Below, in pieces: positions 41,464-60,012 of a stretch of 64,000 nt of DNA (position 1 is the stretch's first letter; the number at the start of each line of letters is the position of its first letter). The notes under the pieces were generated by a model. That model was not told where the DNA came from. It searched no databases and worked only from the letters and a program-made list of their open reading frames with translations. Where the stretch lies: the NCBI GenBank assembly GCA_019239775.1, contig JAFAZN010000231.1, positions 12,741 through 76,740 of the forward strand. The letters are read 5' to 3'. The position numbers were made by a program, and so were the translations under genes. Origin of the DNA: Chloroflexota bacterium (GTDB lineage Bacteria; Chloroflexota; UBA6077; CF-72).

Positions 41464-41613
41464 ATGGACGGGGAGTGCGCTTTCTGTGGTCGCGCCGATG
41501 CGGCCACCCACCAGTTGTTTTGTCACGACTGCCAGGCTGATCACCGCGTCTGCCGACCCTGCGCCGACGACGCCACCCGCGACGCCGCCCAACTCGGCCT
41601 GCAAGCCGCCTGA
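41464..41613 (+). CDS. 49-aa Cys-rich (3x CxxC) putative zinc-ribbon protein
   Basis: Below the track length cutoff. My translation is MDGECAFCGRADAATHQLFCHDCQADHRVCRPCADDATRDAAQLGLQAA, with G/C-rich third codon positions like real genes here. No clear SD. Confidence 0.35.
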   Translation: MDGECAFCGRADAATHQLFCHDCQADHRVCRPCADDATRDAAQLGLQAA

Positions 41614-41643
41614 AAGGCGATTGCTATACTTGGTCGGCGCTAA

Positions 41644-41715
41644 GCCGACGTAGCTCAGGGGTAGAGCAATGCTTTCGTAAAGCATGGGTCGGGGGTTCGA
41701 ATCCCTTCGTCGGCT
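41644..41715 (+). tRNA. tRNA-Thr (anticodon CGT)
   Basis: Hand-folded cloverleaf: GCCGACG-TA-GCTC-AGGGGTA-GAGC-A-ATGCT-TTCGTAA-AGCAT-GGGTC-GGGGG-TTCGAAT-CCCTT-CGTCGGC-T. CCA is not encoded. Confidence 0.9.
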
Positions 41716-41796
41716 CCCACTTATTCGAGTTCAATTCAACCAGGATTGGACCCGTCCGGACGCCCTTAAGGCGCCGAGTACACCCATTCGTACACC

Positions 41797-42114
41797 TTAG
41801 AAATCGCAGGCAGCCTCCCCAATCGCCCGTTTCTGCGCGGCAACAGCTGCCTGGGTGCCGGTCGCGTCTATGCTCAGGCGGCGACGCTGATTGATAGTGG
41901 CGAGTTGAGGCTGGATGCGCTCCTCGGGCACTGGCAAACCGCGGGCGACCAATCCCTCGATATGGAGTGCAATCGCCTCCCGGGCGCGCTCACGACATTC
42001 GTCGACTGTCTCGCCTTATGTGACTACCCCTGGTAACGCGGGCACCGTGACGGTGTATCCCCCCTCCTCGTCGTCAGGGTCAAGCAGGATCGTGTAGCGT
42101 CGTTCGTCCGTCAT
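41797..42114 (-). pseudogene. hicB: hicB-family antitoxin gene with an in-frame TAA at codon 33
   Basis: My translation is MTDERRYTILLDPDDEEGGYTVTVPALPGVVT*GETVDECRERAREAIALHIEGLVARGLPVP... The stop (42018-42016) sits where HicB proteins usually have Q (CAA). Confidence 0.7.
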
Positions 42115-42131
42115 CAGCAGGTCACGTCGTT

Positions 42132-42206
42132 TTACAGCAGCCGGCGCAGATCATCCACGCTCAGCCCAACTTTGACGTACGCGTAACACCGCAGGGGCTC
42201 ATGGAC
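42132..42206 (-). pseudogene. hicA: 3' remnant of a hicA-family toxin gene
   Basis: Only ~24 codons are open (..YAYVKVGLSVDDLRRLL*), resembling a HicA C-terminus. It ends 17 nt upstream of the hicB start and the 5' two-thirds are missing. Confidence 0.4.
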
Positions 42207-42251
42207 TCATGCGCGGGTTCCGATAGTCGGAGCAACGAGGGGGTTTCGAGC

Positions 42252-42800
42252 ATGCGGGATCGTTTTGCGTTGGCTGGCGGGGGAAGTCTACTCGTGGCCA
42301 TCGTTCTCACGGCATGGTTCATTGTCAGCCGATCGGCTCCGGCGAATGATCAACCGCAGATCGCCGTCGATGTGCCTGCGCCGCGGCCTACCGCTACGCT
42401 AGCGACCTCGCCCACGCCTGTAGATCGCTCCGTTGCACTGGTGGTTCACCTGGATGGCATCTCAGGCTCGAGTAGCTTTGCCCAGGCCGGCGACCGTATC
42501 GATCTGTTGGCGTATCTGCCAGCTGAGCTCGCTGGTCAGGCCACCACTCGTGTGTTGTTGCACGATGTACTGGTCCTCGACTCTGGGACCGGCCCATCAG
42601 ATTCGGCACTGACGGTAGAGGTGTTACCCGAGGACGCCGTCCTGGTCGTGTCAGCTACGAACCTGGGGGCGAGGCCATTTGCGGTCATCCGCCCAGTCGA
42701 CACTACAGTCGATGCCCGCCTGCCAGATGGCGTGACGGATGAGGCCTTGCGAGCGCGCGTGGGCGGCCCTCCGATCCTTGCTGAGTCGTCGAGACACTGA
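42252..42800 (+). CDS. CpaB/RcpC-like Flp pilus assembly protein (short form)
   Basis: ATG at 42252 preceded by GAGGGGG. N-terminal TM helix, then GDRIDLLAY...TRVLLHDVLVLD...ALTVEVLPEDAVLVVSATNLGARPFAVIRP (RcpC-type C-domain). No clear SAF domain. Confidence 0.55.
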   Translation: MRDRFALAGGGSLLVAIVLTAWFIVSRSAPANDQPQIAVDVPAPRPTATLATSPTPVDRSVALVVHLDGISGSSSFAQAGDRIDLLAYLPAELAGQATTRVLLHDVLVLDSGTGPSDSALTVEVLPEDAVLVVSATNLGARPFAVIRPVDTTVDARLPDGVTDEALRARVGGPPILAESSRH

Positions 42801-43717
42801 TGCTCGGTCCGGATGCTGGCCTGATGATGGCGGTGGCTGCGCTTACGGGCGTCGGGGTCGGCTGCCTGGTGCTGGTTTTCATGCAGCGGCGAGCGCGTCG
42901 AGCACGCGGCCGCCGCATGGCGTTGTTGGTTGGCGTCGCGACGCCATCGAGCACAGCTAGCGAGTTCAGGTTTGCTCCGCAGCTCGCGGCATTCAATCGT
43001 GCCACCCAGCGTGCGCGCGGCATGCTACGAGCCCGAGCCGAGCTCGTTATTCGCCTGGCCACGCTGGCCGCCATCGGCTGCGCAATGGTTGGTCTGATCG
43101 GGGGACTGCCCGGTCTATTTCTCGTCACGGCCATTTGCGGGAGCCTGATCTTCTGGCTCCGCCGTGAATCCCAAGAACGCAATAAGCTGGATCGCCAGGC
43201 CGCGTCGGCATTCGAGATGCTGGCCAATGGCCTGCGCGCGGGCTACAGCATCCCGCAGGCAATCGCTCTGGTCGCGCGACAGAGCCCGCGGCCAACCGCC
43301 ACGGAATTCGCGACCGCCGAGCGCGAACTGACTCTCGGCTCGAGTCTGGCTGACTGTCTCGCGCGGCTCGCTGACCGGACTGCACTCGCTGACTACCGCC
43401 TGGTCAGCATCGTGATCTGGATCCAGTCCGAAGTCGGCGGCAATCTCCCGGTCGTCCTCGACGCCGTTGTCGCTACGTTGCGAGAGCGCATGGAGCTGCG
43501 CGATCAGGTCGCCGCGGTCACCGCCCAACAGCGCATGGCGTCCATGGTTTTGAGCCTGCTTCCGCTTGGGGTGCTGTTGCTGTTCATGGCGGTAGACCGC
43601 ACCTTCGTGGACCCGATGTTCACCCAGACGGTCGGGCGCGTCATGCTGACGATCGCGGCCATGTTGCTTGGCGCGGGCTGGTTCTTCATGCGCGCGGTAA
43701 GCAAGGTAGAGCTGTAG
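42800..43717 (+). CDS. tadB: TadB-like platform protein (T2SS-F family)
   Basis: FEMLANGLRAGYSIPQAI...ELTLGSSLADCL...IQSEVGGNLPVVLD...R, with flanking TM helices. Its ATG overlaps the upstream stop (TGATG). Confidence 0.75.
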   Translation: MLGPDAGLMMAVAALTGVGVGCLVLVFMQRRARRARGRRMALLVGVATPSSTASEFRFAPQLAAFNRATQRARGMLRARAELVIRLATLAAIGCAMVGLIGGLPGLFLVTAICGSLIFWLRRESQERNKLDRQAASAFEMLANGLRAGYSIPQAIALVARQSPRPTATEFATAERELTLGSSLADCLARLADRTALADYRLVSIVIWIQSEVGGNLPVVLDAVVATLRERMELRDQVAAVTAQQRMASMVLSLLPLGVLLLFMAVDRTFVDPMFTQTVGRVMLTIAAMLLGAGWFFMRAVSKVEL

Positions 43718-43719
43718 CG

Positions 43720-44637
43720 ATGCATCTCCCCGATCTGAGCGTGATCTTGCTCGCGGGTACCTGGAGCCTGGTCGCGGCGTTTGCCACTGCGTTCGTATTG
43801 CGCAGGCGTCGCCGCAAAGCGGTCCGGTCGCGCCTGGTCGCGCTTCACATCGGCGGCTTGCGACCACAGCCGGTGAGCAGTGCCCGGCCGAGGCTGTACT
43901 TCAATGCCGCCAAGTTCACCGCAATCGTCGCCAGGCGTGCGCCAAAATTGGTCGAGCGGCTGCAACACCAGATCGATGGCAGCGACCAGCTCGGCAAATT
44001 GACGTGGGTACGGTTGCTTTCGCTGCAAACCGCTTTCGCTGGGTGCGGATCCCTCGTCGGCGTTGTGCTGATGCTCAATCTCGGAGCACGAGGGATTGCG
44101 GTCGTCATCTTGCTCGGGGCTCTGGGCTGGTTCGCCCCCACGCTGTGGCTCGCTCAGCGGCGCCGCGCCCGCGTGCGCCAGATGACGCGTGATCTGCCGA
44201 CCGTCATCGATCTGTTGTCACTGAGCCTTCAGGCCGGTATGGGTCTGGACCGCGCGATTCGCGTCGTGAGTGAACGCGTGGAATCTCCACTCAGTGATGA
44301 GTTACGGCGCGTGCTGGGGGATATCTCGCTTGGTCTTTCCCGACGGGAGTCGTTTACACGCCTGTCAGACCGGCTGCAATCCGATGACATCCGGCTGTTG
44401 ACCACCAGCATCGTTCAGTCCGAGCAGCTTGGCACCAGCCTGGTCGGCACCATCAAGACTCAATCGCACCAGCTGCGCGTTTCCCGCCGGCGCGCCGCGG
44501 AAGCAGCCGCGCTCAAGGCGCCAATCAAGATGCTGGTTCCAATGGTGCTCTTCATCCTGCCAGCGCTGTTCCTCGTGGTGCTCGGTCCGGCGGGCATCAA
44601 TGTCGGCCTGGCGCTGACCGGCGGCGGGCACCCGTGA
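43720..44637 (+). CDS. tadC: TadC-like platform protein (T2SS-F family)
   Basis: DLPTVIDLLSLSLQAGMGLDRAI...LGLSRRESF...QSEQLGTSLVGTIKTQS...KAPIKMLVPMVLFILPALF. It starts 2 nt after the tadB stop. Confidence 0.75.
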   Translation: MHLPDLSVILLAGTWSLVAAFATAFVLRRRRRKAVRSRLVALHIGGLRPQPVSSARPRLYFNAAKFTAIVARRAPKLVERLQHQIDGSDQLGKLTWVRLLSLQTAFAGCGSLVGVVLMLNLGARGIAVVILLGALGWFAPTLWLAQRRRARVRQMTRDLPTVIDLLSLSLQAGMGLDRAIRVVSERVESPLSDELRRVLGDISLGLSRRESFTRLSDRLQSDDIRLLTTSIVQSEQLGTSLVGTIKTQSHQLRVSRRRAAEAAALKAPIKMLVPMVLFILPALFLVVLGPAGINVGLALTGGGHP

Positions 44638-45023
44638 TCGGGCGGCACAACGCCCAGGCGGCGGTGGAATTCGCATTGACGATGCCGCTACTGATGCTGT
44701 TGCTGCTTGGCATCCTCGATGCAGGCAGGGCCGTCGTCGCGGCGGTTTCGATTGATAACGCGGCCCGCGAAGGTGCACGCTACATCGCCGTTCACTTCAA
44801 CGACGGAACGTGCGCCAGCCCGAACTGCCAGACGGAGGCCAGGCAGGTCGTCCTCAACAGCGCGCTCGCACTGGATTCGGGCCAGCTGAGCTCGACCGTG
44901 ACGATCGCGGGCGGCAACGCGAGTATTTTGCTCAGCTACCCGTTCCAGCCCGTCGCGCCGCTCATCACCTCAGTATTCGGTACTCCCGTGCTGACAACGA
45001 CCAGCAGCATGCGGATCCGCTGA
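44634..45023 (+). CDS. TadE-like pseudopilin
   Basis: AQAAVEFALTMPLLMLLLLGILDAGRAV...NAAREGARY. The GTG start overlaps the tadC stop. Confidence 0.75.
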   Translation: MIGRHNAQAAVEFALTMPLLMLLLLGILDAGRAVVAAVSIDNAAREGARYIAVHFNDGTCASPNCQTEARQVVLNSALALDSGQLSSTVTIAGGNASILLSYPFQPVAPLITSVFGTPVLTTTSSMRIR

Positions 45024-45078
45024 CTCTGCTCACCTATCCATCCTGCAATCAACCCACGCTCGTTTACAGGAGAACTTC

Positions 45079-45579
45079 ATGGACACCGCCAACGTCGACC
45101 TGTTTCTTTCTACGCGCCGCCTGCGAGCTGAAATTCCGCTCCGCGGCTTCAGCCGCCTATCGGACGTGCTGAACAACACGCCGGGCGACTTTCTCGCTGG
45201 AACGCTGCGCGGAATCAGCGACGTCCGCTTCTCGGTCAAGCCACTGGCCGACGGATCGGTCGAGCGCGACCTGGTGGTGCGGATCCAGGATGTGTTGATG
45301 GTGCAGCCACTCGACCCGCCCACAGTGTCTCCGGGTTCAACGGCAGAGCGCCGCGATCGCATCCTGCAGCGCATGGTGCTGGAATTGGGCGATTGGCGTC
45401 TGGAAGGCAGCCTGCACCTCGTCGACTGCGTGCGTTGGGTGGACTTTGCGACTGCCAACAATGAACGGTTCCTCGCCATGACGCAGGCTACCGTGGCCAT
45501 GCCTGGCGCCGAGGCGTCATTCGAGAGCTCGTTGGTGCTGGTCAACGGCGCACGGGTCAGCGCGCTCTACGAGTGCTAA
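45079..45579 (+). CDS. hypothetical 166-aa soluble protein in the tad operon
   Basis: AGGAGA lies 5 nt upstream of the ATG. Same strand, 55 nt after tadE-like. No family recognised. Confidence 0.6.
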   Translation: MDTANVDLFLSTRRLRAEIPLRGFSRLSDVLNNTPGDFLAGTLRGISDVRFSVKPLADGSVERDLVVRIQDVLMVQPLDPPTVSPGSTAERRDRILQRMVLELGDWRLEGSLHLVDCVRWVDFATANNERFLAMTQATVAMPGAEASFESSLVLVNGARVSALYEC

Positions 45580-45604
45580 CCGAGTACGGCACGGCAGCCA
45601 AGGG

Positions 45605-46654
45605 CTAGGTGGTCAGAACGACGACCGCGTTGCCCTGAAGCGGCCCGCTCTGGCGGGCGGTACTGGTCGGATCGACAACATACGGCAGGAAGTAGCCGAT
45701 CAAATGCGTCGTGGAGATCTGGCTTTGCTGCAGATAAAACCGCGCAAAGCCAACGATTGTCACCGTTGGCCCCCCACATGGGTTGCACAGCGGCACGTCG
45801 AGCAAGATGTAAGGCGGGACTCCCATCCCGTTGTACGTCGGGTCGTTCGGCAGATTTTGCCGCCGAACATTGTCCTGTAGCCCGGTTTGCACGTCGGTCG
45901 CATAGCCTGCTCCGGCCAATCCGACCGTCGAGCCCACCGCCAGCGTGCCAACGGCATGGCTGCCATCTGACCAGTACTGCATGCTGGTATGCGCGTTGCC
46001 GTACAAAGGTGCAGTCGACCCGCCGCTTCCTGCACTCGTGGTTAAATCCAGAAATGGCGCAGCCAGGCTGTAGAGGTCGTATGCGTTGCCACCGCTAGCC
46101 ACATAGGACGCCCGCGGTATCACGAGCGGCACCATAGTCGTCAGCGAGGTCGGTGGCGCAACAGGTACTAGGCGCGCTTGTGAAGTGGCGCTGATCTGAA
46201 TGTTGCCCAGGCCAACGAAAGGCATCAGCACCGTATGGAAGGCTCCGTTCAGGGATACCTGGACGCCTGCGCTCGTCACGGGCATCATGCCACCGCCAAC
46301 CGTGCCGACAGTCGCGCCAGTCTGATCCACATACATTGCCTGGAGGGCAGCGTCGGTGGGGACGGACACCTGGTTCTGGGTAGCCATGCTCTGAGCCTGT
46401 CCAAGCACGGCCGAATCGAGATACACCCGCGATGTTTGCTCGTCCAGCACACGCCACGTCGCCGCGAGCGCCATCGCGTCGGCCGCATTCTGCAGATGGC
46501 GGCGCTGAACGAGGAAGAAACCCATGTTCAGGACAAGACCAACGAAGGCGAGAACGCCTACCAGCGCGAACGCGGTGAAGACGAGTGCCTGCCCGCGGGT
46601 GCGTCCTCGGGCGGTCTGAGCTAAGGAAGGCCTTCGAAATGCCGATACTTGCAT
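45605..46654 (-). CDS. TadG-like (Tad N-terminal domain) pilus-associated protein
   Basis: ATG at 46654 (MQVSAFRR...). RGQALVFTAFALVGVLAFVGLVLNMGFFLVQRRHLQNAADAMALAA is typical of the TadE/G-like N-domain. The track start at 46837 overlaps the divergent gene. Confidence 0.65.
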   Translation of the reverse strand: MQVSAFRRPSLAQTARGRTRGQALVFTAFALVGVLAFVGLVLNMGFFLVQRRHLQNAADAMALAATWRVLDEQTSRVYLDSAVLGQAQSMATQNQVSVPTDAALQAMYVDQTGATVGTVGGGMMPVTSAGVQVSLNGAFHTVLMPFVGLGNIQISATSQARLVPVAPPTSLTTMVPLVIPRASYVASGGNAYDLYSLAAPFLDLTTSAGSGGSTAPLYGNAHTSMQYWSDGSHAVGTLAVGSTVGLAGAGYATDVQTGLQDNVRRQNLPNDPTYNGMGVPPYILLDVPLCNPCGGPTVTIVGFARFYLQQSQISTTHLIGYFLPYVVDPTSTARQSGPLQGNAVVVLTT

Positions 46655-46709
46655 GGATGCTGACGACGGAGAAGCGGCCGAGTATACGTTCTGTCCCCAG
46701 GGACGCCAA

Positions 46710-47690
46710 ATGAACGTGCTCAACCGCTGGCGCACGTTCACCGAGCGACGCGCAGTGGCTCGATTGACTGGCCCTGTGATAGCGGCCGGCGTCGGGGTGT
46801 TTACGTTCGCCGCCGTACTGCTCGTACTCAGTTCCACTTTGAACGGTCAGACGCAAAACACAGCGCCAGCAAGTGCGGCGACACCCGTCGAAGAGGCGCC
46901 ACAGCCTACCGCCGTCGTCGCTGCGGCAAACATTTCGATCTCGACACATCTACCGCCGGGCCACGTAGCGATCGGGGTGCCGTTTTCGGGCGGCAGTGCG
47001 CCACTGAACGAAATCCACGTTGGCGTCCATGTCGACGTGCTGGCTTCGTTCCCCGAAAGCGCGTCGGGCCCTGGCTTTGTGGGCCAGATCGTCTCGGGCG
47101 CGCAAGTGCTGCAGCTGGCCGCCAGCGGCGATCACTCGGCGTCGGCATTGCTCGACGTGCCCGCGGAATCGGGCATGTGGCTGGGCCATCTGGTTCGCGA
47201 GGGTGTGCCGCTGACCTACACCGTCCGCACCGAGCAGCAGACCGGCTCGGCGTATCCCTCACTCACGGCGTCCGAGGTTCTAGCGCGTTTGACTGGCCTG
47301 CGCGCGAGCGGCAAACCCACGGCGGTACCAGCGGCCACTCCTGAACCTCAGACGGTGCAAGATCACGAGGTGTCGCAGGTCGACTTCGTGGCGTACGAAG
47401 GGGTGACAGTAACTGACATCCAACAGCGGTTTGGCGTGACCGAGGCCGCGCTGCGGGCAGCCAATCCGACCGTGGACGACATTGCGGTTCTGGAACCGGG
47501 AACGGAATTGGTTATTCCGGGTCTCTATGGCTTTGCGTACACCGTGCGGGTGGGCGATACGTGGACGTCGCTATCGAGTACCTTCGGCATCTCAGTTGAA
47601 GCACTTGCGCGCGTTAACGGCCTGCCCGAAGAGACGCTGCCAGCAGTCAATACCCTGCTGTTGATCCCTGCGCCGGGCCACGCGCCTTAG
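46710..47690 (+). CDS. CpaB/RcpC-like protein fused to two C-terminal LysM domains
   Basis: ATG at 46710 (MNVLNRW) and a TM helix. GHVAIGVPF...GVHVDVLASF...IVSGAQVLQL...GVPLTYTVR (RcpC-like). Two LysM-like repeats follow (YEGVTVTDIQQRFGVTEAALRAANP...; YTVRVGDTWTSLSSTFGISVEALARVNGL...). Confidence 0.6.
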   Translation: MNVLNRWRTFTERRAVARLTGPVIAAGVGVFTFAAVLLVLSSTLNGQTQNTAPASAATPVEEAPQPTAVVAAANISISTHLPPGHVAIGVPFSGGSAPLNEIHVGVHVDVLASFPESASGPGFVGQIVSGAQVLQLAASGDHSASALLDVPAESGMWLGHLVREGVPLTYTVRTEQQTGSAYPSLTASEVLARLTGLRASGKPTAVPAATPEPQTVQDHEVSQVDFVAYEGVTVTDIQQRFGVTEAALRAANPTVDDIAVLEPGTELVIPGLYGFAYTVRVGDTWTSLSSTFGISVEALARVNGLPEETLPAVNTLLLIPAPGHAP

Positions 47691-48865
47691 CGCGCGTCTG
47701 GTGCGACCGCGGCGGCCATTTCGCGTACTTTGGCAACGAGCGGATCGAAGGCTTGCTGGAATTGCGCACCAAGCGTAGGCCTACCGTCATTGATCGACTC
47801 GGTGAGCTGAGCGCCCACGCTTGGGAGCTTCAGGATCTGACGGGTGCCCACAACGCCGGCGACGTCGTCGAATGTCAGCCCGCCAGTACTGTTGGCTCTG
47901 TTGAGCACGAAAATCATGCGTTCTCTCGAGTAGCCGAGTCGCTCCGCAAGGCCAAGGTACTGGTGCACATTGCGTAGCGCCCCAAGCGTCGCGGTCATCA
48001 CGATGACCTGAACGTCGGCCACGTCAAGTGAGGCCAGCGCGCGTTCGTCGTAGAAGCGAGCTGTGTCGGTGACGACCCATTCGTAGGATCGCGCCAAGGC
48101 GCTCAAAACACTGCGCATGTGGTCACTCGAGACAGTGTCGACCAGTTCTGGGCGATTCGGACGGTCGAGTAGTCCAACGCCGCTGCCGTGCTTGGCGACG
48201 GCACTCTCGATCGTCGAGGAGTCCAGCGCGTCGATGTGCGGCAGCAAATCAATGACTGAATGCTCGCCAGCCATACCGAGATGAATTCCCGCATCACCGT
48301 ACTGCAGGTCGGCATCGAACAGGAGAACAGACCGTTGCGTCTGTCGGCGCAGCGAGAGAGCGAGATTTGCGGCGACCGTCGTGCTGCCGACGCCACCTTT
48401 TGTGCCAAGTACCGCAATCCGCTTGCCGAGCGCCAGTGAGACGGGCGGCGGCGCCTTGGTGACTGTGGTCACTCGACGACCTTGCAGGCGTTGGTGGGTC
48501 TCACGGACGGTCTGCAGCAGGCTCTCACCGTTGCCAAAGGGTTTCAAGACGTAGCCCTGGGCACCGGCACTCATGGCCTTTTGCAGGAAGTCGATGCGCT
48601 CTTCGGACGTGACCATGATGACGGCGCCGTTTGGCACTTGCGACGACACAAGCCACGTGGCCTGGATTCCATCCATGTCCGGCATGTGGATGTCCATGAG
48701 CACCACATCCGGTTGCAGCTCACTCGCCCGCCGCACCGCATCCTGACCGCTCGAGGCGTTTGCCACGACCTGCATGTCCTGCTGCTCTGCGATCAGCTGC
48801 GTAAGATGCGCACGCTGCAGCGCGCTGTCGTCAGCTATCAGGATCCTGATGCGCTGTTCAGTCAT
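47687..48865 (-). CDS. response-regulator receiver fused to a CpaE/TadZ-type MinD/ParA ATPase
   Basis: ATG at 48865 overlaps the kinase stop (ATGA). IRILIADDS...VVLMDIHMPDMDG...VIMVTSE...YVLKPF (canonical REC), then VLGTKGGVGSTTVAANLA (deviant Walker A). Confidence 0.8.
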   Translation of the reverse strand: MTEQRIRILIADDSALQRAHLTQLIAEQQDMQVVANASSGQDAVRRASELQPDVVLMDIHMPDMDGIQATWLVSSQVPNGAVIMVTSEERIDFLQKAMSAGAQGYVLKPFGNGESLLQTVRETHQRLQGRRVTTVTKAPPPVSLALGKRIAVLGTKGGVGSTTVAANLALSLRRQTQRSVLLFDADLQYGDAGIHLGMAGEHSVIDLLPHIDALDSSTIESAVAKHGSGVGLLDRPNRPELVDTVSSDHMRSVLSALARSYEWVVTDTARFYDERALASLDVADVQVIVMTATLGALRNVHQYLGLAERLGYSRERMIFVLNRANSTGGLTFDDVAGVVGTRQILKLPSVGAQLTESINDGRPTLGAQFQQAFDPLVAKVREMAAAVAPDAR

Positions 48866-51800: not shown

Positions 51801-52962
51801 AGCCGGTCACCTGGGTAGCGACAGGGTTGGCGAAGGTGAAACGGCCACGCCCATCGGTGCGATAGATGATGTCTCGGGCGTGTTCAACCAGGTGAACGGT
51901 GCGCGCCTCGTTTTCGCGCGCTCTCTCCGCTATGTCTTGAAATTGCCGCACCTCGACCTGCACGTCGTCGGCCATCGAGTCGAATGCATGGCGAAACCTC
52001 CGTGCGAGGCGACGCCACCACAAGAAGCTGAATAAGACAATCGCCGCAGAGACCAGCGCTCCGAGCACCAGTTGGCGTGTCGCTGACTCGTAGTCCGAGC
52101 CAGTGACCAGGTCGCTGGGTTCCGTGACCACGGCTGCCCACGGTGTGCTCGCGACCCTGGTTGAGGCCTCTAGCCAATCACGGCCGTCTGCCGCCAGCAC
52201 GTGCCGGGTCGCGTCCTCGCCACGCAGGTCGTCGAGTAGATCATGATTGACTTCGGTCGCCCACAGGGCCGGGGCCTTGCTCTGTCCCAGGACGGCGCCA
52301 GTGCGCAGATCGACCAGCGATGCCGAAGCGCCACGGGGTAGGTCGAGCGTGCTCCATCCGGCTAGTGAGCCGCCCAGGCGCAACCCAGCAACGATGTATC
52401 CGTGATGCAAGCCATTTGGCTCGTCGATGGGCACCGCGATCGGCAGGAGCACGGGTGTGCCTGGGTCGGCGAGCTGCATTTGAGTGGGGTCACCGAAGGC
52501 GATCATGTGGGTCGCCGCAGCGTCCTCAACGTACGGGCTCGACGTGAAGTCGGCGCGCGCCTCCACGGGTGCGTCGACCGAATGCCCGTGATCCATAAGG
52601 TCTTCGCCAACAAAGGTGAGACCGGAGAACAGCTCTGAGTTTCCGTTCATCGCGACAAGAAGCGCGTCGCGGCTGGCGTCTGTGCCATCCCAGAAGCCGG
52701 GCAGACGCGCGGCAGTGGCGCTCGCACGGCGCAACTGGTCGACTACGTCCACCAGTTGCACAGCCGCGGACCTGGTCTGGAGCGACGCTTGCCGTAGGGC
52801 CGTTGCTTCCGCGTCCTGCTTGGCTCGGTGGATTCCCAACAGAGTGCCCGTACAGCTGAGCAGCAACATTGCTCCGATCAGGCAGGCAAAGCGTGCCCCG
52901 ACCGACAGGCGGCCCTGATTGAACTGCGCCAAGCCGCGCGTCAGATGCGGTGTGGACTTCAT
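48862..52962 (-). CDS. hybrid sensor histidine kinase: TM, extracytoplasmic Cache-like region, TM, multiple PAS, HisKA, HATPase, REC, REC, Hpt
   Basis: H-box FLATMSHEIRTPMNGV, N-box LLNLAGNAVKFT, G-boxes DTGIGIS and GGTGLGLAI, REC VVLMDCQMPEMDG...YVSKPV, Hpt HKAAHAFKGDAASVG. 1366 aa. Confidence 0.9.
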   Translation of the reverse strand: MKSTPHLTRGLAQFNQGRLSVGARFACLIGAMLLLSCTGTLLGIHRAKQDAEATALRQASLQTRSAAVQLVDVVDQLRRASATAARLPGFWDGTDASRDALLVAMNGNSELFSGLTFVGEDLMDHGHSVDAPVEARADFTSSPYVEDAAATHMIAFGDPTQMQLADPGTPVLLPIAVPIDEPNGLHHGYIVAGLRLGGSLAGWSTLDLPRGASASLVDLRTGAVLGQSKAPALWATEVNHDLLDDLRGEDATRHVLAADGRDWLEASTRVASTPWAAVVTEPSDLVTGSDYESATRQLVLGALVSAAIVLFSFLWWRRLARRFRHAFDSMADDVQVEVRQFQDIAERARENEARTVHLVEHARDIIYRTDGRGRFTFANPVATQVTGYTSEEILGRHYLELIHSDFRREAARFYRRQVRDRVVSTYYEFPCARSDGELLWLGQHVQMVVDDGGTLVGFEAIARDITAQRQSAARQQLLTTALEASANAIVLTDGQGAIEWANAAFSELTGYTVEEARGHALSMLKSEPESPEVYADIRRTVLAGRSWKGVIVNRRKDGTPYNEEMTITPVRGELDAVTHFVVVSHDVTERKEAETKLQDERDFAQLVLTTMAQGLGVTGPGGHFLYANPALAQMLGCNSEDLLGKSVLDFYCDEDREALTAIDLRDWGTEIGSFDAQLTRLDGSTFRALITVAARFKSTEFEGLVMAVTDLTEREVMLLALAEARDAALDASRAKSEFLATMSHEIRTPMNGVIGMTELLLDTDLTPRQVGYVEALSRSGEALLTLINDILDFSKIEAGKLVLERVDMDVRDVAEDVAELLGKAAYKKGVELACVIGHDIPRTLRGDPTRLRQILLNLAGNAVKFTHQGEVVVRARIVENDHDCVKVRFEVSDTGIGISQESRERLFQPFVQADGSTTRQFGGTGLGLAICRRLVDMMDGEIGVDSELGHGSTFWFTASFEAGPQAEDVTDFSAFEGRRVLIVDESRASREMLRDHLAAWRMVADEAESSSAALVALRSAVDLQQPFAACLVDVRIASTDGGELERVVAEDPALSTVKLVLLGLQGEPEHGLRVAGQVTKPIRPSQLFDVLAEAFQGSQAIAPLRNRLMQQRPTLHLPGRLLVAEDSKVNQMVALGLLAKLGLEADVVNNGLEALEAIESTTYAVVLMDCQMPEMDGFGATREIRNRQGSGPRLPIIAMTANAMAGDRERCIEAGMDDYVSKPVRLDDLSAALARCAGATAAPDVEGPPAPEPKPEALDKATLETLPASLRDNLLSIFFEETASRFEHVRAAVSGGDSTALHKAAHAFKGDAASVGALEVAVLCRELEQRGRAGELDGCELLVPQLDAALDRARKAFELLQLPKAA

Positions 52963-53105
52963 TGCGTCGGCGGGCTCCGGCTTCAGGTATCGGCACGTCA
53001 GGACGCCAGCTTGAGCCCGTCCGGCCTATCAACGACTAGCGGCTAGCCCGATGGTGACTTGCGGCTCTCGGGATTGTGACCGCTCGAAACGAGAATCGAA
53101 ATGGC

Positions 53106-54371
53106 ATGTCGGACCGGTTCAAGGGCCAATCCATCGTCGAGTTTGCCCTCATGGTCCCCGTGCTGCTCGTCCTGGCGTTAATCACTCTCGACGTTGGGCG
53201 TCTGTACGTCTTCTGGGTGGACCTGTCGAACGCCGCGCGCGAAGGCGCGTACGTGGCCTCGATCGCCTATTCGGGCGCCACGCCGAACGCAACGGTCGTC
53301 GACGCGGTCATCAACGAGAATCCCTCGCTGGGCCTTCAGGCCAGCCAGGTCAGCGTGAGCTACCTGTCCGCCGGCACCATCGTCAGCGTCCAGGTGAGCT
53401 ATCCGTTCCAGCCGATCGCCCCCCTGGTGCGCAGCGTGTTCGGCAACTCGCTGTCTGTCACCGCCAGCGCCGAGTTCCCGGTCCGACTCCAGCCAACCGT
53501 TGCGCCGACCGTGGCGCCCAGCACGGCGACACCTACCTCGACGCCTATACCAACAGCGACCAACACGCCAACCGCAACGCCGTCTCCGACTAATACGCCG
53601 ACCGCGACGGCCACGCCCACCAACACCCCAACTGCCACGCCGTCTCCGACCAATACGCCGACCGCGACGGCCACGCCCACCAACACGCCAACCGCAACGC
53701 CGTCTCCAACCAACACCCCAACCGCGACGACCAGACCAACGAATACGCCGACGTCGACCAACACGCCTACTCCAACGAACACACCCACCAAAACGCCGAC
53801 CCCAACAAATACACCGACAAACACCCCGTCACCAACCCCGTCGCCGACCAATACGCCAAGCCCGACGCCGACGCCGGTCGCTACCGTCGTTCTCGTCGGC
53901 GACACCACCATCGAGTCGCAAGATGACAGCATCTCGGGCGGTACTGCGTACGCCTATGTGTTCCAGGCCCAAGCCACCGGTACGAGCGGCAGAGCGCACA
54001 TCTATGTGGCCGCAGGCAGTGCCATCAGCAAGGTCATCGTAGGTCTCTACGCTGACGGCGGCGGACAGCCGGGTACGCTGCTCGGTACGACGTCGATCAG
54101 TGCACCGGCCGTAGGCGCCTGGAACACCGCTGCGCTCCCCGGTGTCACGGTGAGCAATGGCAATCTCTACTGGATCGCGGTGCTACCTATCGGCAACCAC
54201 GTGGTTGTCGAAGACCGTCCTGCCGATTTCTTCTGGTTGCTGTGGTGGTTCCTCAATGGCTCGCCGCCGGCTGAAGCGAGTTCCTCGAGCACGCTCACAG
54301 CGCTGCCCGCGACGTGGGCCGCGGGCAGCGACGCGTTCGCCTACTACGTCTCGGCCTACGTCACCAATTGA
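53106..54371 (+). CDS. TadE-like pseudopilin with a prepilin motif, long Pro-Thr linker and ~170-aa C-terminal globular domain
   Basis: [32 protein letters not shown] (G/xxxxEF), NAAREGAY, then ([10 protein letters not shown])n, then a beta-rich C-domain ([15 protein letters not shown]...[10 protein letters not shown]). GTG at 53076 is an alternative start. Confidence 0.75.
53527..53878 (+). repeat. Coding tandem repeat (Pro-Thr linker) containing three ~60-bp units at 53560, 53620 and 53680
   Basis: Units 53560-53619 and 53620-53679 differ at only a handful of positions. Flanking copies are more degenerate. Confidence 0.9.
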
Positions 54372-54413
54372 CGGTGGGCCGGCATCAGCAGGTGAGCCAG
54401 CCCTGCCGTCCGA

Positions 54414-57167
54414 TCAGCTTGCGTCCGCCCGCGCCAGTATCTCCGCGATCACACGCCCCGGGACCCGCCAGTTCGGCTCTGTCGGCCGATGGTTGTTCGG
54501 CGCGTTTCGATCATTGAAATACACCAACGCTCGCACCAGGGGATACTCCGAGAGCGCGTTCAGTCCGCTCTCGAGCCAGGTGCGCTGCTCATCCTCCGTT
54601 CCAGATGTGCCGACTTCCGCGAGTAGGACCGGTTTGCCCAGGTTTGCCACCTCGGCGTAGCGCGGTTGCAAGATCTGGGACAGGGAGCGCGGCGTCTCAA
54701 AGCCCATGTCCCAGTCCCATTCGGCGTCCCCGAGCACCGTCAGGCCAACATAGTCGACCACGTCCGCACCGGGGTCGTACGCGGTGGCCCCCGCCTCCCC
54801 GGCCGGCGACCACACCCAGCGCGCATTCGTCGCGCCTTCGGCTCTGAAGACACTGACTACATGACGGAACGCCGCGCGATAGCTGTTCGGGTCGTTCGCC
54901 GACCATGGATACAGTCCACTCAAATCCATTTCTTGACCCCAGCGCAGTAGGACGACCTGTGGCTGCCGTTCCGCGACGAGCCGAGCTGCCGCACGCAGCT
55001 CATCGTCCGCCAGTCCCCAGCTCACCCGCTCGAGAACGGGCATGTGCTCACGGTGCGGGAAGGGCTCGATCGTGATCATAGGCACGCGGCCCGATTTGGC
55101 GGCGTGGTCCAGGGCGTCGGCAAACAGGCGGGGATCGTCCTGACGGACGTACCAGTGCTCGATGCCGAGCTGGAGATCAGCGCCGTCCTGCCAAGGGTCA
55201 TAGGCGCCGATCAGTATCCGGCTATCCGACGCCTGGATCTGGTTCAGTGCCGGCGGATTGATGGGCGCTTCTTTCTGCGGCGCAACGGGAACCGGCTCAT
55301 TCTCAATAGCCTCGGCCAGGTCCGCCCTAGCCTGAGCAGTCGCGATCCTCGATTCGTGGTCGCGAGAAGAGGCCGCAACGGATTCGGTCGACTCTAAAAC
55401 TTGACGTGCGGCGGACGCGCCCGGAGAGAGGGCATCGGACGCGGCGTCACTGCTGTTCCAAACCGCGGCGGCGACCAGCAAATCGTGGCTTGCGCACGCG
55501 GTAAGGGCCAAGCTGCAGGAAACGACAGCAACCGTGGCGAGCATCGAGCCCCGCAGACGCAGTGCTCGCACCCGACTTTGTCCTCGTCGATGCAACTCGA
55601 GCAGGTCCATGCTGACGTTTGTTACGACGACCCACAGCATGTAGGCGGCCCCCAGCAACGCGAACGCCACGTACCCGTCGACCTGATCATCGGTGTCCGA
55701 CAGTAGATAGCGCCAGACAATGCCGAGGCCGATCACGACCATCGACAAGTAGACCGCTTGTGACCTGAGGCTGAAAACGGGTACTGCGGCGGTTTCGCCT
55801 TTTGGCGTAATCATGTACGGGTGGCGAATGTGCAGTACTGCGTTGACCAGTGCCCACAACACAATCGGCCAGCGGGCTATGTGCAGCACGATTCCGCGCC
55901 AGGAGAGTCCGAGCCCTTGCGGGAGCTGCCAGCGCCGCGTCCAGCGCCAAGCGACATAGGCGGTAAGTGCCTGCGGCATGCTCGCCGCGCCGAACTGCCA
56001 CAGCACCGATCGAGCCGGCTGGCGGCCCGTTAAGAGCGCAAGAAGGGGTATCCCGAACAGCACGAGCATGCTGGCCGACCAGAGCGGATACCACGTTTCG
56101 GCGAATAGAACCTGCACCGCCTGACCAAAGCGGTACCGACTGACGAGGCGCGGCGTGAAACTAAACAGCACTTGGATCATCGACAGCGCCCAAGCAAATT
56201 GCTGGCGCAGGTAGGTTTCGAAAGTCTCGGGTCCGTCGCCTACAGCTAGGGTCTCAGGGACGAACACACCTCGGTACCCATGCGCTGCGAGCACCACGGT
56301 ATCGAGATGGTCCTCGGCGCGCGTCGGTTGAAAGCCGCCGATCTCGTTGATCGCACTTGTGCGATAAGTGGAGTGCGACCCGATGATGAACGGGGTTTCA
56401 GAGTGCCCGAAGAAGCCGCGCTGGAGCGGGCCCTGGAGCACCAACTCTTGCTCAGCGGCGCCGCGAGCAACCCAGCTTTGGCCGACGTTGCCGTATAGCG
56501 ATGGCGCCTGGACCCAGGCGATACGGCTGTCCGCGAAATAACCCAACACCCGATGGATGTACTCGGGGTACGGCCGGTGGTCGATGTCGAACTGTGCGAA
56601 AAAGTCGTATGCCGCGCCGTGTGCGTCCAGCCAGGCATTGACGTTGCCCGCCTTGGTCTTGGCCTTGTACGGCGGCCGTGGTTGGTTGTAGTGCTCGATG
56701 CCCCGACGCGAGAAATACCTCACCCCAAAACGAGCCGCACTGGCTTGCACACGTGGATCGTTGCCTTCGTCCAGAATCCACGAGTCGTGCGGGTACCTGA
56801 CGTCGGCGAGTGCGGCGAGTTGCCGCTCGATGACGTCGAGTGTCTCCTGCGCGGGCACGCATAACGTGATGAGCGCGACGCGTCGACCGCAGGGAGCTGG
56901 CATGTGCCGCGGTCGCCGCATACGACCCACGAAGAACAGGTACATGCTGGGCAGGACCGTAGCCTCGTACGCCCAAGCCGCTGTGAACAATCCGTATAGC
57001 AGCAAGTCCCCGGCGTTACCGGGGCGCAGCCACCATGCCCAGAAGATGCTGTTGCCCGCGATCCACACGACGACCATCAGCCAATAGACAACCGCGTCAC
57101 CGTGGGTGAGAACTGCCTCCGATCGCACGCGTGCGCTTAGGTTCGGTGCGGTGTCGACCCCTCGCAA
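54414..57167 (-). CDS. processive GT2 (cellulose-synthase-like) glycosyltransferase fused via TM helices to a C-terminal GH26-like glycoside hydrolase domain
   Basis: ILDEGND, QFDIDHRP, FIIGSHSTYR, TRAEDHLDT and QQFAWA (QxxRW position) in the N-terminal half. The C-terminal half has LLRWGQEMD and VLLAEVGTSG, paralogous to the GH26-like protein at 57308. Confidence 0.8.
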   Translation of the reverse strand: MRGVDTAPNLSARVRSEAVLTHGDAVVYWLMVVVWIAGNSIFWAWWLRPGNAGDLLLYGLFTAAWAYEATVLPSMYLFFVGRMRRPRHMPAPCGRRVALITLCVPAQETLDVIERQLAALADVRYPHDSWILDEGNDPRVQASAARFGVRYFSRRGIEHYNQPRPPYKAKTKAGNVNAWLDAHGAAYDFFAQFDIDHRPYPEYIHRVLGYFADSRIAWVQAPSLYGNVGQSWVARGAAEQELVLQGPLQRGFFGHSETPFIIGSHSTYRTSAINEIGGFQPTRAEDHLDTVVLAAHGYRGVFVPETLAVGDGPETFETYLRQQFAWALSMIQVLFSFTPRLVSRYRFGQAVQVLFAETWYPLWSASMLVLFGIPLLALLTGRQPARSVLWQFGAASMPQALTAYVAWRWTRRWQLPQGLGLSWRGIVLHIARWPIVLWALVNAVLHIRHPYMITPKGETAAVPVFSLRSQAVYLSMVVIGLGIVWRYLLSDTDDQVDGYVAFALLGAAYMLWVVVTNVSMDLLELHRRGQSRVRALRLRGSMLATVAVVSCSLALTACASHDLLVAAAVWNSSDAASDALSPGASAARQVLESTESVAASSRDHESRIATAQARADLAEAIENEPVPVAPQKEAPINPPALNQIQASDSRILIGAYDPWQDGADLQLGIEHWYVRQDDPRLFADALDHAAKSGRVPMITIEPFPHREHMPVLERVSWGLADDELRAAARLVAERQPQVVLLRWGQEMDLSGLYPWSANDPNSYRAAFRHVVSVFRAEGATNARWVWSPAGEAGATAYDPGADVVDYVGLTVLGDAEWDWDMGFETPRSLSQILQPRYAEVANLGKPVLLAEVGTSGTEDEQRTWLESGLNALSEYPLVRALVYFNDRNAPNNHRPTEPNWRVPGRVIAEILARADAS

Positions 57168-57307
57168 CGTGAGCAGTCATTGTGCAAGTAACCTGCCAGG
57201 CTTCGGTGGACGTCGCCAGCTGAACACCGCTCGCGCGGGGGATCCCCCATCAGGGGGCTGTATTGACCCCTGTGGGGCGGGATGCACACACACCGACGCG
57301 GCGATGC

Positions 57308-58390
57308 TTGAATGTGAATACTCGAGCGGGCTGGCTGGTGGCGCTGCTGTTGTGCCTTAGCACGGCGCTGACGGCTGACCTAGCGTATGCTGCCGGCGTC
57401 GATGCCACGGCAGCTACCGACCTTCAGACTGCGGCCGCACCTGACCTGAGTCGTCCGCCAGTGCCGTACTCAGCCAACGACTCGGCGGTCGCACTTGGCA
57501 TTTATCGTCCGAGTCTGCCTGACGACCTTTCTTCTCTCGCTGTTGAGGAGCGTGCCCTCACACACCCGGTGTCGATTGTCCACTGGTTTGCGCTTTGGGG
57601 AGGCTGGAAGAGCGCCTTCAGTCGCACCGATCTGGATGTGGTGAGTGCGCACGGTTCTTTGCCGATGATCACCTGGGAGCCGTGGGCAGGGGTCGGCGCC
57701 GACCCGAGCTGGTCGCTCAAGTCGGCCATTTTGTCGGGCCGTATGGACGCATACATCGCGTCCTGGGCGGAGGGTATGGCTGCGTACGGCAAACCTGTGC
57801 TACTGCGATTCGCCCACGAAATGCACAACCAGCCGAACTACGCGTGGGCGGTGGGTGTAAATGGCAACACGGCCGCCGATTACGTGGCGGCATGGAGATA
57901 TGTCCGCGGGTTCTTCCAGCGTGCAGGGGCCACCAACGTGTTGTGGGTGTGGAATCCGAATACTCTCGGCGATGCGCCCGCGCTTTCGTACTCGTCTGTG
58001 TATCAGTCCCTATACCCGGGCGATGACGAGGTCGACTACGTCGGTCTTGATATCTACAACACCGGTCCGGCCCTCAACTGGGGGGCGCCGTACTGGCGGA
58101 GCTTCGCTGCCGCGTTGTCCCAGCCCTACGCAGCGATCACGAGTGTCTCATCGAGGCCGGTGATTCTGCCTGAGGTCAGCTCAGGTGAAGTTGGCGGATC
58201 GAAGGCAGCCTGGATACAGGCTGCCTTAACGAGCGGCCTGAATCAGTTTCCGAAAGTTCGCGCGCTGGTTTGGTTTGACGTGAACAAAGAGCTGCCCTGG
58301 AACTTGGGCTCGAGCGACTCGAGTCTAGCCGCCTGGTTAGCGGTGAGCGGGTCGCAACGTTTCGACGTTGGCCCTACCGTTCCCAGCTGA
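57308..58390 (+). CDS. secreted GH26-like glycoside hydrolase
   Basis: Signal-like WLVALLLCLSTALTADLAYAAG. LLRFAHEMHNQPNYAW and VILPEVSSGE (candidate acid/base and nucleophile Glu). Start is TTG 57308 or GTG 57314; the track start at 57263 is less likely. Confidence 0.75.
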   Translation: MNVNTRAGWLVALLLCLSTALTADLAYAAGVDATAATDLQTAAAPDLSRPPVPYSANDSAVALGIYRPSLPDDLSSLAVEERALTHPVSIVHWFALWGGWKSAFSRTDLDVVSAHGSLPMITWEPWAGVGADPSWSLKSAILSGRMDAYIASWAEGMAAYGKPVLLRFAHEMHNQPNYAWAVGVNGNTAADYVAAWRYVRGFFQRAGATNVLWVWNPNTLGDAPALSYSSVYQSLYPGDDEVDYVGLDIYNTGPALNWGAPYWRSFAAALSQPYAAITSVSSRPVILPEVSSGEVGGSKAAWIQAALTSGLNQFPKVRALVWFDVNKELPWNLGSSDSSLAAWLAVSGSQRFDVGPTVPS

Positions 58391-58477
58391 AGCGCACTTT
58401 TGCCTAAAAGCGAAACTCTGCATCGAGCGGCTCGCCACGTGGCACTCTTCACGCTACGCTGAAGAATCAATCTCGAT

Positions 58478-58774
58478 ATGACGTTCAAACGCCCAACGCC
58501 TCGCGATGCCGCCCGCCAGCCGGATACGTCCAACGCAGCACATGACCAGACGCAGCGCTCGCCTTATAGCGCGCGAGCGCTTGGCATCCGCGCTGAGTTA
58601 GGAAGTCGATTACAGGAATTGCGGCTGATGCAACTCGAACTAGAGCGCCACGGCGGTAGCCGGGAGGACTCTGCGACCGTGGTTGACGCTGCCAAACATG
58701 TCGAGGCTGCCATGGCAGCACTCTCGCGAGTGGGTGGCGGTGGCCACGATCAGAACGCGACACCGAAAGAATGA
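58478..58774 (+). CDS. hypothetical 98-aa protein (weak call)
   Basis: ORF with A/T-ending codons atypical for this genome. No SD and no family recognised. Confidence 0.3.
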   Translation: MTFKRPTPRDAARQPDTSNAAHDQTQRSPYSARALGIRAELGSRLQELRLMQLELERHGGSREDSATVVDAAKHVEAAMAALSRVGGGGHDQNATPKE

Positions 58775-58982
58775 TGCGCATGGCCCCAAACCAAGTCCAG
58801 GGGGCATTTACTGGTGTCGTCGTGGAGACGTCTGTGACTCCACCAACCGATCTGCCTGTACACCCCTTCGGACACCTTAGCCAACGGACGGCGACGGAAC
58901 TTTGCGGCCTTAGGAGGACTATTCGCCCGACCTGGAACTCGGCGCGGACGAGCTTAGACGCCGCTGGACGGACCGCGTGGCA

Positions 58983-59023
58983 TTCGTAAAGCCTGGGTCG
59001 GGGGTTCAAATCCCTTCGTCGGC
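58983..59023 (+). repeat. Partial tRNA-Thr 3' half (candidate attR)
   Basis: TTCGTAAAGCcTGGGTCGGGGGTTCaAATCCCTTCGTCGGC matches 41674-41714 at 39/41 positions. There is no D-arm or 5' acceptor strand upstream. Confidence 0.8.
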
Positions 59024-59059
59024 GCCGGACTTGGCCGACCCAGGCGGAACGGTCGGTAC

Positions 59060-59971: not shown

Positions 59972-60012
59972 TTTGATGTTTGTGCGAATTGACAAGGTAA
60001 GCCTCCTCCCGT

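Follow-up and report, generated by a model that had tools for sequence, protein, structure and literature searches.

Islands integrated into tRNA genes by a tyrosine integrase have been formalised in Islander (Hudson, Lau and Williams 2015, PMC4383910). Derivatives of the integrative conjugative elements (ICEs) and the integrative mobilizable elements (IMEs) of Streptococcus have been covered by the definition of the cis-mobilizable element, or CIME (PMC5704250), for which a route of accretion and decay has been described (PMC5704250); in Dehalococcoides, 15 of the islands located at ssrA lack any integration module (McMurdie et al. 2011, PMC3146451), and accretion with decay has also been suggested for these integrase-less members (PMC3146451). 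The locus considered here belongs to a Chloroflexota bacterium and lies in a stretch of 64,000 nucleotides of contig JAFAZN010000231.1, referred to below as the window, to which all coordinates without a contig name refer. Exact protein matches assign it to an uncultured species of Chloroflexota (NCBI assembly GCA_019237995.1), which is also present in the samples ERZ27313880, ERZ27313870 and SRR8113284. Its segment 41720-59026 can be regarded with good confidence as the remnant of a site-specific integrative element, one of a family whose target in soil Chloroflexota is the 3' half of tRNA-Thr(CGT).

Like the Islander islands, this segment has an intact, regenerated tRNA gene at one end and a displaced 3' fragment, as a direct repeat, at the other; moreover, its cargo is unrelated to mobility, and its relatives carry a Phage_integrase gene by the tRNA. 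Unlike them, it has no integrase gene, its composition is host-like and no empty site was found for the species. With the CIMEs it shares the retention of both attachment (att) sites, attL and attR, and of their arms without integration genes, a deletion-derived structure (of which a hicA stub remains) and a position at a hot spot on which related elements with an integrase also land. The island may work in a manner resembling a CIME, and might then be open to mobilisation in cis or in trans; it differs in that no conjugation or mobilisation genes were seen in any member of the family, so that descent from an ICE or IME is not known. Descent from an element with an integrase is supported by the alignment of the hicA stub described below. 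The ssrA islands of Dehalococcoides come from the same phylum and are likewise found downstream of a small-RNA gene and bounded by direct repeats taken from its 3' end; they too show a conserved motif by the repeats, an integration module on the reverse strand beside attL, and members lacking an integrase. They differ in their tmRNA target, 20 bp repeat, CcrB-like serine recombinase and dehalogenase cargo, as against the tRNA-Thr target, the core of ~45 bp, the tyrosine integrases of the relatives and the pilus, signalling and glycan cargo found here.

The sole tRNA gene detected in the window by ARAGORN is tRNA-Thr(cgt), at 41643-41719 on the plus strand; together with the Rfam match (67 bits), this bears out the intact tRNA-Thr(CGU) of the preliminary description, which had been made from the letters alone. 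The 3' part of the gene recurs downstream in the same orientation, 41671-41717 and 58980-59026 being identical at 43 of 47 positions with copy starts 17309 nt apart. The 41-nt repeat first described within this block was found again by repeat comparison, as were its two mismatches: 41674-41714 and 58983-59023 agree at 39/41 positions, the differences falling in the anticodon stem (A41684/C58993) and in the T-loop (G41699/A59008). The anticodon-loop segment TTCGTAA is the same in both copies. Exactly two copies of the 41-mer are present in the window, with 0 expected in shuffles, and it is not the dispersed repeat that the preliminary description had considered as an objection. The right copy is, as had been claimed, without a 5' half: neither a D-arm nor a 5' acceptor strand was found upstream of it, and Rfam does not call this second copy a tRNA. 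A block of identity from the anticodon loop to the 3' end reportedly corresponds to the anticodon-loop sublocation that Williams distinguished in 2002. Read from the sequence, the repeat is a real attL/attR pair. In the alignment of same-species contigs the G-to-A change in the attR T-loop is polymorphic, and one contig (L090) has one more substitution.

A second repeat, ACACCCNTTCGNACACCTTAG, accompanies the two cores. One copy is found at 41780-41800, 61 nt past the end of the tRNA; the other, at 58860-58880, precedes the right copy of the core by 100 nt. The window has only these two, with 0 expected by chance. The paired GTACACC motif to which it belongs lies 105 nt downstream of the start of the left copy and 124 nt upstream of the right copy, that is, in the P' and P arms of Table 1. 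Apart from the tRNA, Rfam recognised nothing in the window, and the P-arm module is therefore not a known RNA.

Conservation of this layout beyond the window was examined by scanning the JGI metagenomes with the 41-mer, which returned 51 loci. Some 40 of these loci hold a full tRNA-Thr gene placed after the same aspartokinase, LysM and zinc-ribbon genes as in the window, and in these loci with shared left synteny the tRNA is identical. Six of the 51 are fragments without the 5' half (L113, L142, L134, L131, L143 and L123, the last from the window's own species), and L108 has a further decayed tRNA fragment 2.2 kb after its tRNA. In five other contigs the ~125 nt upstream of the fragment align with 58856-58979 of the window, the rest of those contigs being unrelated; for L134 the identity with the P arm reaches 80% over 182 nt. 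The paired motif, TACACC-N6-[T/G]ACACC, stands at -124 to -128 from the start of the core in all fragment loci that extend far enough, and at +104/+105 from the full-tRNA cores of the window, L112, L115, L117, L146 and L150, with no other occurrence in the ~230 kb scanned. The ~110-150 nt after the tRNA are likewise conserved among these full-tRNA loci. L115 was considered as a full element and rejected, its downstream genes being ordinary chromosomal ones, including rho, so that it holds a remnant arm only. Altogether, the att layout recurs in ~10 independent soil-metagenome contigs with different flanks, and it is the one expected of an attP whose arm-type sites, flanking the core, would have been split by integration.

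Furthermore, L131 and L130 share a stretch of 2031 nt with 98.7% identity. It opens exactly at TTCGTAA, in the anticodon loop, and is preceded upstream by the P arm in L131 and by the 5' half of the tRNA in L130. Judged by this alignment, they are the occupied (attR) and empty (attB) sites of a strain pair from one other lineage, which indicates that the att family has been mobile. The architecture, in which the core stretches from anticodon loop to 3' end and the GTACACC motifs stand in pairs at -124 and +104, is so far undescribed. In IMG/VR, the 41-mer gave no match, the arm motif returned nothing beyond chance matches that were AT-rich and had no tRNA core, and the relatives of an integrase of the type found in L103 (see below) did not exceed 32% identity; hence the att family is not a catalogued virus. 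No description of a tRNA-Thr int-hicAB family was found in the literature searched, IMG/VR or Rfam.

Different elements occupy the same tRNA-Thr(CGT) gene in the relatives, with related integrases and differing cargo. On the minus strand of L112 follow one another the C-terminus of an integrase (LGHSSIATTGNVYAH, Pfam Phage_integrase), HicA, HicB, the P' motif and the tRNA, and in L150 the P' motif is followed by a hicB remnant, hicB and hicA. An integrase comes directly after the tRNA in L096, and an HTH_17 protein and an HNH protein stand ahead of hicB in L146. A contig of 18,146 nt from JGI sample 3300047160, the most informative of the relatives, presents a TPR gene, then after a gap of 339 nt a helix-turn-helix (HTH) gene, three small open reading frames (ORFs), an integrase (SAM_3 and Phage_integrase), HicA and HicB (91% identical to that of the window), then a 538-nt gap with room for a tRNA, and beyond it LysM, aspartokinase and onward. 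Judged by gene order, it appears to hold a mini-element of 3.5 kb in seemingly the same chromosomal slot. On the basis of these loci, the backbone of intact relatives runs in the order tRNA, P' arm, hicB, hicA, tyrosine integrase, small ORFs with an HTH gene, P arm and displaced tRNA fragment. Two other occupants of this tRNA gene may be mentioned: a related element in L103 (87-2515), in which a Shedu (SduA_C) defence gene lies between the tRNA and the integrase, and an islet of 2.2 kb without an integrase in L108 (9325-11600), in which a MazF/PemK toxin gene lies between tRNA-Thr and a decayed fragment with its own P arm.

In the window, what remains of such a backbone is found next to the tRNA. 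Its alignment with L112 starts at the tRNA, crosses hicB and takes in no more of hicA than the final 11 codons. Homology stops near 42170, ~30 nt before the start of the RcpC gene; as it ends inside hicA, the integrase and most of hicA have been deleted or replaced. No recombinase domain was detected by Pfam in any ORF of the island, and six-frame translation of both edges followed by Pfam recovered only hicB and the hicA stub, in agreement with the earlier statement that no integrase is recognisable. Pfam also found no excisionase, relaxase, type IV secretion or phage genes between the repeats. The hicAB pair at the left edge had been called decayed. The remnant is real and hicA is reduced to a stub, but hicB is not badly decayed, its one nonsense codon being polymorphic: the TAG at 42016-42018 is present in the window, L081 and L083, and is CAG in L082, also of the same species, where alone the gene is intact. 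Moreover, HicB homologs usually have 75-81 aa, and the window HicB has an aberrant C-terminal extension. With hicA cut to 11 codons and a nonsense codon segregating in hicB, the HicAB module is therefore defunct; the toxin is gone, and hicB is an orphan antitoxin gene starting to decay. The arrangement of the intact relatives, with hicA-hicB directly beside the integrase and attP, is like that of the HicAB modules that stabilise islands; a place beside integrase and attP is the usual one of an addiction module. The window departs from it in its toxin gene of 11 codons and in the polymorphic nonsense codon of its antitoxin gene.

By analogy with known tRNA-targeting islands, a tyrosine integrase would have brought about recombination between attP and the tRNA gene, with the anticodon loop as its site. 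The tRNA 3' half brought by the element would then have restored the gene at attL, and the original 3' half would have been stranded as a fragment at attR, as is the case with known tyrosine integrases. Both att sites and both arms have survived in the window; gone are the integrase, hicA except for its 3' stub and whatever else made up the recombination module, with 16.7 kb of cargo (42170-58855) in their place. With these losses the island is therefore unable to move by itself, and movement would be possible only if a related integrase acted in trans on its att sites, like for a cis-mobilizable element. The earlier suggestion that the element looks immobilised agrees with this; in the species the island behaves like a fixed part of the chromosome, with attR drifting.

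Several observations weigh against this reading. The empty site predicted in the preliminary description, with the TPR gene coming straight after tRNA-Thr, was not encountered in any of the relatives examined, and no tRNA-Thr abutting the TPR gene was found for the window species or its sister. The orthologs of the TPR gene are 68-79% identical and none adjoins a tRNA. In the sister contig L094, the DNA beyond the TPR gene consists of 2.4 kb of unrelated sequence with no att fragment and with a Flp pilin gene; Tad-type DNA may therefore be old at this place. The sequence just past attR is without the TTGAGTTCA trailer seen after the same tRNA in other lineages, and the paired GTACACC motifs are most likely, if putatively, arm-type integrase binding sites, a role that we infer. 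Seven same-species contigs (98-99.9% identity) cover one junction or the other and all carry the island, which thus looks fixed in the species; the density of single-nucleotide polymorphisms (SNPs) relative to L081 is 2.0/kb in the flank and 1.7/kb in the island, with no sign of recent mobility. Finally, the tetranucleotide composition of the island is within the range of flank chunks, and its GC content at third codon positions (GC3) is 0.738 vs 0.780 in the flanks (Mann-Whitney p=0.01). Overall GC content is 0.626-0.634 in the island and 0.626-0.657 in the flanks. The comparison of composition called for earlier thus left the island almost indistinguishable from its flanks, apart from the slightly lower GC3. 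As for the right edge, said to be gene-poor and visibly AT-richer, its 600 nt are indeed gene-poor, but AT enrichment is only mild, GC being 0.605 at 58-59 kb vs ~0.64 elsewhere.

The sister species (sample 3300085371) has ~80% nucleotide identity in both flanks. One of its contigs (L087, found with the GGDEF-EAL protein of the left flank) ends ~70 nt before the tRNA; another hit of the same search, P0006, was rejected as a paralogue in an unrelated context. On the right side, the match between L094 and the window begins at 60643 and breaks off at 59067, so that homology ends 7 nt past the TPR stop codon and 41 nt from the attR core. Its Flp pilin (Pfam Flp_Fap, E=2e-7) has no window counterpart, nor has a secreted Gly/Asn-rich protein (L094 2960-3989) whose C-terminal anchor resembles a PEP-CTERM signal. 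The TPR orthologs of L092, L093 and L095 were tried as empty sites and rejected, with no adjacent tRNA or att fragment. Nor did an aspartokinase scan yield an empty site: among the matches listed, the best relative (81%) ends before the tRNA, and the others (<=64%) have no tRNA-Thr downstream. In ~15 relatives with a syntenic left flank, 1.5-7.5 kb past the tRNA could be followed, and no island gene was found downstream.

Integration into the 3' half of tRNA-Thr, as first proposed, gains support from the conserved arms, the integrase-bearing relatives and the attB/attR pair found elsewhere. The further claim that the 17309 bp arrived as one element is no more than plausible, accretion followed by deletion being an equally good fit; in either case, the junction within hicA shows the present structure to be a rearranged derivative. 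In a scenario of tandem accretion, which is possible and can only be entertained tentatively, an older att-bounded island with the Tad, kinase and family-2 glycosyltransferase genes would already have lain at tRNA-Thr, and an int-hicAB mini-element of 3.5 kb would have integrated into the tRNA in front of it. A later deletion, starting within hicA, would have taken away the integrase, the internal P arm with its fragment and the P' end of the older island, leaving two ends that stem from separate events. The abrupt junction in hicA near 42170 would be explained in this way; mini-elements of ~3.5 kb, apparently with the same ends, are present in what looks like the same chromosomal slot; att-bounded islets without integrase recur at tRNA-Thr, such as the 2.2-kb MazF islet of L108; and accretion followed by decay is a documented route to such structures (PMC5704250; PMC3146451). 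Against it, no internal att fragment or extra arm motif is left in the island, and a single deletion in a large integrase-bearing element accounts for the same data in fewer steps.

The cargo could also be ancestral chromosomal DNA, only the P' arm, hicB and the P-arm fragment being derived from mobile DNA and rearranged to either side of it. The near-identity of composition with the flanks, the fixation of the island in the species and the Flp pilin gene near the TPR gene of the sister species would all fit such an origin. It is nevertheless held to be highly improbable: no island gene occurs downstream of the syntenic tRNA in the ~15 relatives, the sister DNA by the TPR gene has no homology to the window cargo, and placing a correctly oriented and armed attL/attR pair outside native DNA needs an unlikely series of rearrangements. 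As to the idea that the repeat arose by chance or is a duplication-derived tRNA pseudogene fragment unrelated to site-specific recombination, the substitutions in the fragment and the lack of a recombinase nearby can be invoked in its favour, but it is effectively refuted by the 0 matches expected by chance, by a start at the anticodon loop like that of att fragments, by the arm module conserved upstream at a fixed distance in other contigs, and by the existence of an attB/attR pair for the same core.

The features of the island, regarded here as the remnant of an integrative element, are collected in Table 1 together with those of its ends.

Table 1. Coordinates of the att sites, genes and other features at the tRNA-Thr locus, given as positions in the window
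Feature	Position	Strand	Evidence or remark
tRNA-Thr(CGT), intact; 3' part = regenerated target attL	41643-41719	+	ARAGORN; Rfam 41644-41715, 67 bits
attL core, anticodon loop to 3' acceptor end	41671-41717	+	Direct repeat family D6
P' arm: trailer TTCGAGTTCAA, hairpin, paired GTACACC motif at 41778-41800	41718-41830	+	Conserved in L112, L146, L117, L115, L150
hicB antitoxin gene, in-frame TAG 42016-42018, aberrantly extended C-terminus	41797-42114	-	Pfam HicB_lk_antitox E=9e-13
hicA 3' stub, last 11 codons GLSVDDLRRLL + stop	42132-42167	-	Alignment to L112
RcpC/CpaB-like	42201-42800	+	Pfam
TadB/TadC-like T2SSF protein	42800-43717	+	Pfam
TadB/TadC-like T2SSF protein, second	43720-44637	+	Pfam
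TadE-like pseudopilin	44634-45023	+	Pfam
DUF6812 protein, embedded in Tad genes	45079-45579	+	Pfam; exact protein on six same-species contigs
TadG-like protein with Tad domain	45605-46837	-	Pfam PF13400
Membrane-anchored protein, two LysM domains	46653-47690	+	Pfam
Receiver domain fused to ParA/CpaE-like ATPase	47687-48949	-	Pfam
Hybrid histidine kinase, 1366 aa: 3 PAS, HisKA, HATPase, 2 REC, Hpt	48862-52962	-	Pfam
TadE-like protein, Pro/Thr-rich repeat linker	53076-54371	+	Pfam; repeat families D1 and D3
Family-2 glycosyltransferase fused to GH26-like domain	54414-57167	-	Pfam
GH26 glycoside hydrolase	57263-58390	+	Pfam
orf98, weak coding signal, no Pfam match	58478-58774	+	GC by codon position 0.72/0.54/0.61
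Segment varying within species, 79 nt, ends exactly at outer P-arm edge	58777-58855	.	Same-species contig alignment
P arm: paired GTACACC motif 58858-58880, repeated GGAC/TGCAC-type motifs	58856-58979	+	Conserved in L134, L113, L142, L143, L108
attR core, displaced tRNA-Thr 3' fragment, gathering substitutions	58980-59026	+	Repeat comparison
Right chromosomal flank, TPR lipoprotein-like gene	59060-60043	-	Pfam; sister-species homology starts here

The Pfam assignments bear out a cargo of surface-structure and signalling genes, without phage or conjugation genes, as had been proposed from the letters. Like the Tad/Flp loci, the island has RcpC/CpaB, TadB, TadC, TadE-like, TadG-like and CpaE-like genes; unlike them, it is without the CpaF/TadA ATPase, Flp pilin and prepilin peptidase. 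Pfam detected neither the CpaF/TadA (T2SSE) ATPase nor an A24 prepilin peptidase anywhere in the window, inside the island or outside it, and no Flp pilin was found there either, the island having been searched with tblastn and motifs as well. The Tad set is therefore incomplete on its own. The gene for the receiver-ATPase fusion (47687-48949) adjoins that of the hybrid kinase, and this neighbourhood suggests phosphorelay control of a pilus-like apparatus.

Some of the cargo varies within the species. In the TadE-like protein with the Pro/Thr-rich linker, the linker (53527-53890) consists of repeats of 30 nt and 18 nt, and the products of the strains have 381, 431 or 481 aa. A cluster of SNPs, 14 of the 20 that distinguish the island of the window from that of L081, falls within 49525-50596, a part of 1.1 kb of the hybrid histidine kinase gene, and has the look of a recombination tract, or of a sensor region that is diversifying locally. 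Next to the P arm, the 79 nt of 58777-58855 are shared by the window and L089; L090 has 164 unrelated nt instead (~4319-4481), which encode a short peptide reminiscent of a helix-turn-helix (MEIVEVVRRW...AVKKYL), with no Pfam match. This segment may be the remnant of a lost regulator or transposase.

The left flank is made up of housekeeping genes (polA, groEL, uvrC, murE, ispE and aspartokinase), followed by the GGDEF-EAL gene, a LysM protein and a zinc-ribbon ORF of 49 aa. The latter (41464-41613), cysteine-rich and with a weak double zinc-ribbon match, is directly upstream of tRNA-Thr and is kept there in most relatives. The GGDEF-EAL gene (38404-40746, HisKA_7TM-PAS-GGDEF-EAL) lies between aspartokinase and LysM only in the window species and its sister (L087); in ~10 other relatives aspartokinase is followed directly by LysM. 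Confined as it is to these two species, it is therefore a lineage-specific insertion beside the tRNA hot spot. A homolog with 51% identity is found in L144, 4 kb downstream of its tRNA. To the right, the TPR gene is followed by a gene for a Ser/Thr/Ala-rich protein of 1308 aa (60013-63939), with no Pfam match and an array of 18-nt tandem repeats at 63104-63337; the pairing of the two genes is conserved in L092, L093 and L095.

General understanding of genomic islands is unchanged by this locus. It offers, at the level of sequence, a clean example of a tRNA-targeting element decaying into a fixed segment, in a poorly known, uncultured lineage of soil Chloroflexota, and the stages of this decay are visible: the integrase has been lost, the toxin gene deleted, the antitoxin gene is under pseudogenisation and attR is drifting. 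Moreover, with the att architecture as a guide, related islands and the genes they carry (Shedu, MazF, HNH, hicAB) can be traced in metagenomes. It is also conceivable, though rather unlikely, that the small int-hicAB elements at tRNA-Thr(CGT) drive larger integrase-less cassettes that keep only their att arms, and that the 16.7-kb cassette is still exchangeable between strains. Such an exchange would proceed through an integrase acting in trans, or through accretion and co-excision. If this were true, a driver-and-passenger system at a single tRNA would shuffle surface-structure modules in uncultured Chloroflexota.

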